From: Escherichia phage LF82-1
Direction: 5' to 3' (one strand)
DNA: 64,000 nt
Sequence record: PV648359
In this document: positions 34,963 through 37,034 of the stretch, piece by piece
Position numbering within the stretch: position 1 is the first letter of the stretch
Layout of the letters: the number at the start of each line of letters is the position of its first letter
Notes under the pieces: model-generated
What the model was told of the DNA's origin: nothing
The model's database searches: none
What the model saw: only the letters and a program-made list of their open reading frames with translations
Position numbers and translations under genes: made by a program

Positions 34963-35364
34963 TTATAGATTTGGTTTATATGATTTAAATGTTTCGAATT
35001 CGCCTTTATTCATAAGAGCTTTGAATTCGTCAGGACGCATAGCTTTGTCGTCGATAATCCAATCATATACTGGTTTATGTGTTAGCAAATTATGGTACTT
35101 CAAACCAATGTTTTCCAAGTTCTGAATCAGACTTGGGAGAATGTCAATTGCTATACGACCAGGACCTACCGACTTCATACCACGGGCAGTGTAAAGCGTT
35201 ATGGTATGCCCTGCATCATACAGAGCATTAATGGCAGACACCATTTCGACGTCTGGTTTGAAGTTCACGTAATCACGATTGTTATTCCACTCTGTTATAC
35301 AATCATCGACATCAAAACAAAGATTAAGCATGTTTTCTACACGGTGCATTAGATTCGTTCCCAT
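34963..35364 (-). CDS. HAD-superfamily phosphatase-like protein
   Basis: 133 aa; HAD motif I FDVDDCIT, motif II TLYTARG, Lys and acidic DD motif near C-terminus. Confidence 0.5.
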   Translation of the reverse strand: MGTNLMHRVENMLNLCFDVDDCITEWNNNRDYVNFKPDVEMVSAINALYDAGHTITLYTARGMKSVGPGRIAIDILPSLIQNLENIGLKYHNLLTHKPVYDWIIDDKAMRPDEFKALMNKGEFETFKSYKPNL

Positions 35365-37034
35365 TGATGAGTGATATCGCCACCGATTGGACGATAAGAA
35401 ACACCAGTTTCTTTATCAGTTAGTACCCATTTACCAGGATTTTTTGTAATCAGAGTAGCCGTTACAGGTTCTGCTACGTCATAACTAATAGAGCCGTCTT
35501 GAAGTACACGGCCCATGTTACGTAATTGCTTAGTCAGAAGTTCCATACCTTTATAATATGCGGCTACCGCTTTAAGTGGATTATTCTTGAAATAACCACC
35601 TAATGCAATCCAGATAATTGCCACCGCCAAATGATGATACTCGTTAAACGAACTCATCTTTCCATATTTGTAAATTAATGGATTGATGTTAATAGTCACA
35701 TTACAAGTTGTTTCATCAATAGTAAACTGTCCCCAGGTCGGATTAGCATTGAATTCATCATAACCTGAAACAGCATAAAGCACTTTAGCTTCATCATACA
35801 ATTTTGGCCCGTAAATCTTGGTTTCGCCAAAATATCCACGAGGGTCGATAAACTTGACTTCGCCGTTATCAGTAATCATAGTATTACTGAAGTTCGGGTC
35901 ACCATGAATAACAGAGTACTGTCCCTGAGAACGATTATGATAACGAATAAGGTGTTCTAAAGCTTGTTTCAGCATTGGCTTCAGACGTCCAATCTTAGTG
36001 TAGTTCACATGTGTGATTTTACCAAATGAATCAATCAATGGTTGAATACTTTCACAACGATCAATAACTTTCGTATAGAATTCTTTAGTGAAATCACGAC
36101 GAACAGTTTCAGGACTTACAAAATACGTGTCTGTGCTGAATTTCAGTGCATCTAAAATTGCATCAACAATTTGTGGACGAGCAAGACTTGATTTGGATTT
36201 AATATATTCAAATGCCGGCTTACCTTTAATGCGTTCCATTTCAAAGTTATTTTCATTAACAGAAACTAACTGAGGAACTGAATCTGATTTCACTTTCAAA
36301 TACCACGAAATCTCATCTTTCTGAAGAGCTCGTCCCTGTTCGGTTAATGCGAATTTAGTTACAGTTTCTTCACCAATTTCAACTGCATTAAAACTACGAT
36401 TAAGTTCACGAACTTCATGAGCTTTTTCAAGTTTAGGCATATCACCTAAATCAATTAGATTCATAAGCTCTGATTTATTGAATGCGCCGCTGTAAAGGAA
36501 TTCTACGAAATCACGTCCTTTGCAGTATTCATGAATTTCCTCATCGGTAGAACCCATATAGAATTCCCAGTCTTTGAACTGATAAATTCCTACAACATTA
36601 CCACCTGTTGAACCTACGTTAGTGATATTTTCACCGTCGAAATTATACCGACATTCGTCACCCTTAACATAGATTGCGTTAACATTCCAAGACCATGAAC
36701 CAAAATCAGGAATAATATCACACCAGTTAACAATTACATTATGGCCATCTAAATCTTTGTGTAATTTAGCAAGAGCATAAGCAGAACCATACGCTTCATC
36801 AACTGTACGAATAGTCACATTGAACCCTTCTTGCTCACAATAAGCTCGAACAGTTTCAGCAAATTTTGAATGAACTACTACAATAATTTCATCTGCGCCA
36901 AGGTCAGAATAAATTGTATACAAATTGCTCAGAATAGTGTCTTGTTTATAGTTAACAAGCACCTTAGGAATATGATGCGTTATTGGATACAAACGAGTTG
37001 CCAGTCCAGCACCAAGAATAACAGCTTTTTTCAT
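35349..37034 (-). CDS. bifunctional sugar-1-phosphate nucleotidyltransferase / APH-fold anomeric sugar kinase
   Basis: 561 aa; N-terminal MKKAVILGAGLATRLYPIT (G.G.R nucleotidyltransferase signature); C-terminal HGDPNFSN..FIDPRG (Brenner HGD..N and DxD-type kinase motifs). Confidence 0.7.
   Translation of the reverse strand: MKKAVILGAGLATRLYPITHHIPKVLVNYKQDTILSNLYTIYSDLGADEIIVVVHSKFAETVRAYCEQEGFNVTIRTVDEAYGSAYALAKLHKDLDGHNVIVNWCDIIPDFGSWSWNVNAIYVKGDECRYNFDGENITNVGSTGGNVVGIYQFKDWEFYMGSTDEEIHEYCKGRDFVEFLYSGAFNKSELMNLIDLGDMPKLEKAHEVRELNRSFNAVEIGEETVTKFALTEQGRALQKDEISWYLKVKSDSVPQLVSVNENNFEMERIKGKPAFEYIKSKSSLARPQIVDAILDALKFSTDTYFVSPETVRRDFTKEFYTKVIDRCESIQPLIDSFGKITHVNYTKIGRLKPMLKQALEHLIRYHNRSQGQYSVIHGDPNFSNTMITDNGEVKFIDPRGYFGETKIYGPKLYDEAKVLYAVSGYDEFNANPTWGQFTIDETTCNVTININPLIYKYGKMSSFNEYHHLAVAIIWIALGGYFKNNPLKAVAAYYKGMELLTKQLRNMGRVLQDGSISYDVAEPVTATLITKNPGKWVLTDKETGVSYRPIGGDITHQWERI

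Follow-up and report, generated by a model that had tools for sequence, protein, structure and literature searches.

The gene at 35349..37034 on the minus strand of the window (the whole 64,000-nucleotide stretch of Escherichia phage LF82-1, record PV648359, that was analysed) very probably encodes the UDP-D-arabinofuranose-forming enzyme of a phage DNA arabinosylation pathway, in which an isomerase, a kinase, a phosphatase and a nucleotidyltransferase act in that order. Its product is a bifunctional nucleotidyltransferase-kinase of 561 aa, orthologous to RB69 ORF53_52c (gp52:53) and corresponding to AfhE of HY126. The gene is the already described UDP-arabinose enzyme of RB69-like phages and hence a rediscovery, not a new enzyme; with its identification dating from 2018 and the biochemical characterisation of its HY126 counterpart from 2026, the window adds only another near-identical copy.

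According to the ORF list, a single continuous frame, ATG-initiated and closed by a stop codon, occupies exactly this interval, where an earlier note made from the sequence had placed a fusion of two enzymes in one protein. A ribosome-binding site (Shine-Dalgarno GAGGA) lies 8 nt 5' of the ATG, and the large ORFs flanking the gene are all on the same strand, with T4-type replication proteins (DNA polymerase, clamp, clamp loader, UvsX and the gp41 helicase). The DNA of the gene is 100% identical to that of phage LF82-2, as is the surrounding 7-kb stretch (31000-38000 of the window), which also matches JS09 and other RB69-like Mosigvirus genomes at ~98% identity. At the protein level, PHROG 4098 spans the fusion end to end (E 9e-295), tblastn retrieves 363 phage records with at least 80% of the protein covered, 57 Acinetobacter phage records carrying the gene, and 317 protein clusters match in a large protein database; a shorter homolog is present in Vibrio phage D482. 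Such conservation is far beyond what chance could produce.

The relationship with RB69 is very close, protein identity being 98.6% to gp53 (aa 1-218) and 99.4% to gp52 (aa 219-561). In the RB69 RefSeq entry (NC_004928), this region is divided into the genes RB69p053 and RB69p052; the entry has an extra C at codon 218, and it is by this 1-nt insertion that the window gene differs. Thomas et al. (2018) resequenced the RB69 region, found the extra C to be an error and reported expression as a single 561-residue protein, ORF53_52c, which they proposed to make UDP-arabinose together with ORF055c, an arabinose-5-P isomerase (PMC6024577). Mono- and di-arabosylated 5-hydroxycytosine has since been reported in RB69 DNA by Lee et al. 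(2026), who ascribed the making of NDP-Araf from Ru5P to gp55, gp52:53 and gp51 (PMC13326640).

Residues 1-205 (36420..37034, minus strand) have a sugar-1-phosphate nucleotidyltransferase fold. Pfam NTP_transferase matches this N-terminal domain above its gathering score (E 8.5e-10), the best PDB sequence match of the domain is LicC 1jyk (E 2e-5), and Foldseek with an AF2 model of the full-length protein (pLDDT 94.3, pTM 0.91) returns RmlA, LicC, MurU, HddC and the GDP-mannose pyrophosphorylases (GMPP) at E ~1e-8 and TM to target 0.6-0.7. The nucleotide-binding signature GAGLATRLYPITHHIPK (aa 8-24, 36963..37013, minus strand, coordinates confirmed by translation) aligns with the AAGLGTRLRPLT...PK motif of LicC. 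Set against LicC (AAGLGTRL), it reads G8-A-G10-L-A-T-R14...P23-K24, i.e. G-x-G-x-x-T-R...P-K, with G10, R14 and K24 invariant among 49 homologs.

Foldseek with the full-length model listed nucleotidyltransferases only, and the C-terminal domain was consequently modelled on its own. The separate model has a kinase fold, with LicA as a strong fold match and NahK and MTR kinase among the fold matches. The core of this domain (aa 206-510, 35505..36419, minus strand) has an APH/choline-kinase (eukaryotic-like kinase) fold with its catalytic residues intact: the catalytic loop HGDPNFSN (aa 377-384, 35883..35906, minus strand, coordinates by translation), in which G378, D379, S383 and N384 are invariant and H377 is at least 90% conserved among the 49 homologs, and the metal-binding Asp motif IDPRG (aa 396-400, 35835..35849, minus strand), equivalent to DFG, which supplies the second catalytic Asp and in which five of five residues are invariant in the same homologs. 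A beta-rich extension of ~51 aa (aa 511-561; 35349..35504 with the stop codon, minus strand) closes the protein. In a PDB sequence search only the N-terminal domain was matched, with no solved relative detectable for the kinase half and no deposited structure of AfhE.

Both domains had been predicted by the earlier note, and both stand: the nucleotidyltransferase on the domain search and on the LicC and Foldseek matches, the APH/choline-kinase fold on Foldseek of the separately modelled half, where the HGD..N motif it had named is the catalytic loop just described. Its motif descriptions need some repair. The signature it quoted, ILGAGLATRLYPIT, is present at residues 6-19, but not as the literal G.G.R, the real form being the longer pattern given above. 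The DxD it attributed to the C-terminal half is absent there; the sole D.D of the protein, D94-L-D96, belongs to the N-terminal domain, and the metal Asp is that of IDPRG instead.

The fusion gene is linked to genes for an Ara5P isomerase, a HAD phosphatase and a 5-hydroxy-dCMP (5hodCMP) synthase in one module, all on the minus strand. Its stop codon overlaps the start codon (TAATG) of a gene for a HAD-type, AfhF-like phosphatase (RB69 gp51; 129 aa from MHRV..., 34963..35349), assigned by sequence matches: the protein is identical to PDB 9iqw at 128/129 residues, is related to 1xpj (E 1.5e-10) and to the TIGR01689 capsule biosynthesis phosphatase, and carries HAD motif I as DVDDC at residues 13-17. 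On the other side lies a gene for a SIS-domain D-arabinose-5-phosphate isomerase (RB69 gp55, 37216..37851), which would convert Ru5P to Ara5P; it matches Pfam SIS (E 9e-11), PHROG 5670 (E 5e-116) and, in NCBIfam, KpsF/GutQ (2e-32) and KdsD (7e-31), both under their equivalog cut-offs. The ThyA homolog at 32751..33467 is identical to PDB 9iqc/9ir2 at 234/238 residues. The window proteins adjoining the fusion are thus ~98-99% identical to crystallised HAD and ThyA-homolog proteins, which we take to be those of HY126 (the PDB table giving no organism), and if they are, this locus hardly differs between the window and the characterised phage. The ThyA-superfamily protein (RB69 gp48) is the 5-hydroxy-dCMP synthase that provides the acceptor base, and a 299-aa protein at 31852..32751 (RB69 gp46:47) is proposed to act as the first arabinosyltransferase on DNA, consuming UDP-Ara (PMC13326640, the latter in its Table 1). 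The 299-aa protein has no Pfam or NCBIfam match, and matches only PHROG 3891, of unknown function.

Beyond the RB69-like phages, the order SIS, nucleotidyltransferase-kinase, HAD recurs in Winklervirus, Lazarusvirus, Dhakavirus and a cyanophage (27% identity), the gene in the SIS position of the Dhakavirus record being annotated just as a 166-aa hypothetical protein. Of these four other genera, three have annotated ends and starts that overlap at the fusion/HAD junction. This gene context supports a functional unit. Between the isomerase and fusion genes of the window sits a small ORF for a strongly hydrophobic 47-aa product (MKAITIGLLLLMLVMTIYWSL..., 37076-37219, minus strand), whose start codon shares bases with the isomerase stop (ATGA); RB69 ORF054c occupies the corresponding place, and Virsaitis27 also has this ORF annotated.

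In the pathway that we consider very probable, the SIS isomerase encoded upstream would turn host ribulose-5-P into D-arabinose-5-P, which the C-terminal APH/choline-kinase-fold domain would phosphorylate at C1 with ATP to give Araf-1,5-bisphosphate; the translationally coupled downstream HAD phosphatase would take off the 5-phosphate, and the N-terminal domain would join the resulting Araf-1-P with UTP to form UDP-Araf, from which phage glycosyltransferases would put arabinose on 5-hydroxycytosine in DNA, shielding it from host nucleases. Our own observations cover both folds, the catalytic residues, the orthology and the conservation of the gene neighbourhood; the substrates and the specificity for UTP are drawn at second hand from the work of He et al. 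(2026, Nat Chem Biol) as relayed in PMC13326640, and the step order from the same account together with chemical logic. According to that account, HY126 AfhE makes the 1,5-bisphosphate by phosphorylating D-arabinose 5-phosphate, the HAD enzyme AfhF strips the 5-phosphate of Araf-1,5-P2 to leave Araf-1-P, and the N-terminal domain of AfhE forms UDP-Araf. We infer that phosphorylation at C1 with the 5-phosphate still in place locks the sugar as a furanose, which would account for the formation of a UDP-furanose with no mutase involved.

The same enzymes could be arranged differently, as a salvage-type route in which the HAD phosphatase frees D-arabinose from Ara5P, the kinase phosphorylates C1 of the free arabinose and the nucleotidyltransferase makes the NDP-sugar. 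This order of steps is the one proposed in the earlier note, and we regard it as improbable, retaining it because Lee et al., in their Table 1, continue to put the phosphatase first, giving Ara5P as the substrate of the HAD enzyme and free Ara as that of the kinase (PMC13326640). Against it stand the data of He et al., as that paper relays them, in which AfhE is an Ara5P kinase and AfhF dephosphorylates Araf-1,5-P2. From its chemistry, free arabinose would be expected to go mostly to the pyranose, whereas the reported product is arabinofuranose; and the ADP-heptose pathway (GmhA/HldE/GmhB), which uses the same set of enzymes, is established to run in the bisphosphate order. Of the proposal, then, the NDP-sugar product agrees with the relayed account, in which it is an NDP-pentose, UDP-arabinose, and the phosphatase does belong to the same pathway but is reported there to act after the kinase and not before it, on a kinase product made from Ara5P and not from free sugar. 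The word salvage does not fit either, the route being a de novo one that starts at ribulose-5-P and passes by way of the neighbouring SIS isomerase. The step order of the earlier note is probably wrong. Still less credible, to the point of being very nearly dismissed, is a LicC/LicA-like or MurU/AmgK-like enzyme activating choline, MurNAc or a hexose for a non-DNA use: the folds are shared with those proteins, but identity to LicC, LicA and MurU is just 12-20%, the gene is flanked by those of an Ara5P isomerase and a phosphatase in a cytosine-arabinosylation module, and the DNA of this phage group carries arabinose (PMC13326640).

With the bisphosphate order, the intermediate has to pass from the fusion protein to the HAD phosphatase and back. 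The TAATG overlap and its likes in three of four other genera, the C-terminal extension of ~50 aa and the natural HAD-SIS-nucleotidyltransferase-kinase fusions in giant-virus-like contigs suggest that the phage enzymes could work as a physical complex channelling Ru5P to UDP-Araf, and that the cyanophage or giant-virus cassette may supply NDP-arabinofuranose for non-DNA glycans; we hold this extended proposal to be speculative and, on balance, unlikely.

In Synechococcus phage S-SRM01 (L006 5411-7823), the order SIS, nucleotidyltransferase-kinase, HAD-type phosphatase is found at ~27% identity; glycosyltransferases and NDP-sugar epimerases surround it, and within 6 kb there is no ThyA homolog. 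This cassette may serve a non-DNA glycan. Elsewhere, HAD, SIS, nucleotidyltransferase and kinase regions are joined in single proteins of ~890-955 aa. One of these proteins, the 926-aa P0084 of a GCA_013558355.1 contig (L003 8001-10781), consists of HAD, SIS and nucleotidyltransferase regions recognised by Pfam, followed by a homolog of the kinase half, and has neighbours of giant-virus type (MutS with HNH, RNA polymerase Rpb2, RNA_pol_N); a similar 890-955-aa protein (P0091) comes from a eukaryotic transcriptome. The architecture of these single-chain fusions suggests an entire Ru5P-to-NDP-arabinose pathway in one polypeptide.

The 5hodCMP synthase of the module requires O2. Also within the module, at 33746..34906 (minus strand), is a gene for a protein of the U32 'peptidase' family (RB69 gp50; Pfam Peptidase_U32, E 7e-11), for which 'sugar or heterocycle reductase' is the only suggestion made by Lee et al. 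(PMC13326640). The U32 family has members that hydroxylate C5 without O2 and in dependence on prephenate: RlhA (ho5C in 23S rRNA), TrhP (ho5U in tRNA) and UbiU/UbiV, the last two with prephenate as oxygen donor (PMC5727448, PMC6599085, PMC10990095). The phage protein has 13 Cys, including a C-terminal cluster C340-x4-C-x3-C-x2-C352; its NCBIfam match is just an 18.5-bit one to UbiU, and a four-sequence alignment with E. coli UbiU and UbiV, made to compare the Fe-S cysteines and weak at ~20% identity, gives only a local GY.T.C match. The gene is found at 80% identity or more across 221 phage records. The ten genera in the summary of these records and all those sampled are facultative anaerobes, 12 records under seven further names being left un-itemised; no Acinetobacter phage is among the named genera, though the fusion gene is in 57 Acinetobacter phage records. 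The AM101 module is without the U32 gene, and ~40 Escherichia phage records, e.g. Dhakavirus, have the fusion gene and not the U32 gene (176 vs 136). A literature search for a link between U32 proteins and anaerobic 5-hydroxycytosine found none. Erwinia phage Virsaitis27 (L008 5658-6002) has a genuine chorismate mutase of type II (Pfam CM_2, E 1.7e-11), the enzyme that makes prephenate, immediately between its U32 and ThyA-homolog genes; the 79-aa ORF at the same position of the window (33510-33749) showed no similarity to chorismate mutase. These observations suggest that the U32 gene may provide an anaerobic back-up route to 5-hydroxycytosine.

UDP-arabinofuranose is, to our knowledge, no normal enterobacterial metabolite. 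The fusion enzyme would let RB69-like phages draw it from the pentose-phosphate pool, and arabinose on every cytosine blocks restriction and CRISPR nucleases. The practical value of the analysis lies in mending the public annotation of three genes: the fusion gene, labelled 'hypothetical protein', 'GlmU' or 'mannose-1-P guanyltransferase'; the HAD phosphatase (34963-35364), labelled 'phosphoheptose isomerase'; and the 5hodCMP synthase, labelled 'thymidylate synthase' or 'dCMP hydroxymethylase'. GlmU is rejected, as the hexapeptide acetyltransferase domain (left-handed beta-helix) is absent in Pfam, the C-terminal domain has a kinase fold and the GlmU models of NCBIfam score 16-23 bits against cut-offs of 367-611; the guanyltransferase label is rejected likewise on domain content. 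RefSeq NC_004928 still has the 1-nt error that splits gp52/53, and a like error splits gp46/47 according to Lee et al. (PMC13326640).

Among known systems, RB69 ORF53_52c shows essentially no difference, the RefSeq split of its gene being a 1-nt sequencing error (PMC6024577), and HY126 AfhE is set beside it by description. The likeness to these two extends to the 561-aa length, the domain order and the place between an Ara5P isomerase and a HAD phosphatase.

The ADP-heptose pathway, in which the SIS isomerase GmhA converts a ketose phosphate to an aldose phosphate, C1 is phosphorylated to give a bisphosphate, a HAD enzyme (GmhB) removes the distal phosphate and nucleotidyl transfer follows, is alike in logic and in having kinase and transferase in one polypeptide (HldE). 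The folds differ: HldE joins a PfkB/ribokinase-type kinase to a cytidylyltransferase-like domain, whereas the phage protein joins an APH/ChoK-type kinase to an RmlA/LicC-type transferase, and neither PfkB nor CTP_transf_like (cytidylyltransferase-like) is matched in Pfam, so that HldE itself is rejected as an identity and the likeness is one of pathway logic only. The phage pathway uses a pentose and UTP, the other a heptose and ATP. On this comparison, the two routes would be a convergent solution. The same two folds as in the phage protein are found in LicC and LicA (phosphocholine cytidylyltransferase and choline kinase), and the Treponema LicCA fusion has the same N-to-C domain order; their substrate, however, is choline and not a sugar phosphate, and a phosphatase step is absent. 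As in the phage protein, an APH-fold anomeric kinase feeds an RmlA/MurU-fold uridylyltransferase in systems such as AmgK and MurU (MurNAc anomeric kinase and MurNAc-1-P uridylyltransferase), NahK and MTR kinase. Those are separate proteins that act on free, non-phosphorylated sugars in true salvage, whereas the substrate of the phage enzyme, in the account of AfhE relayed in PMC13326640, is already 5-phosphorylated, with a phosphatase acting between the kinase and nucleotidyltransferase steps.
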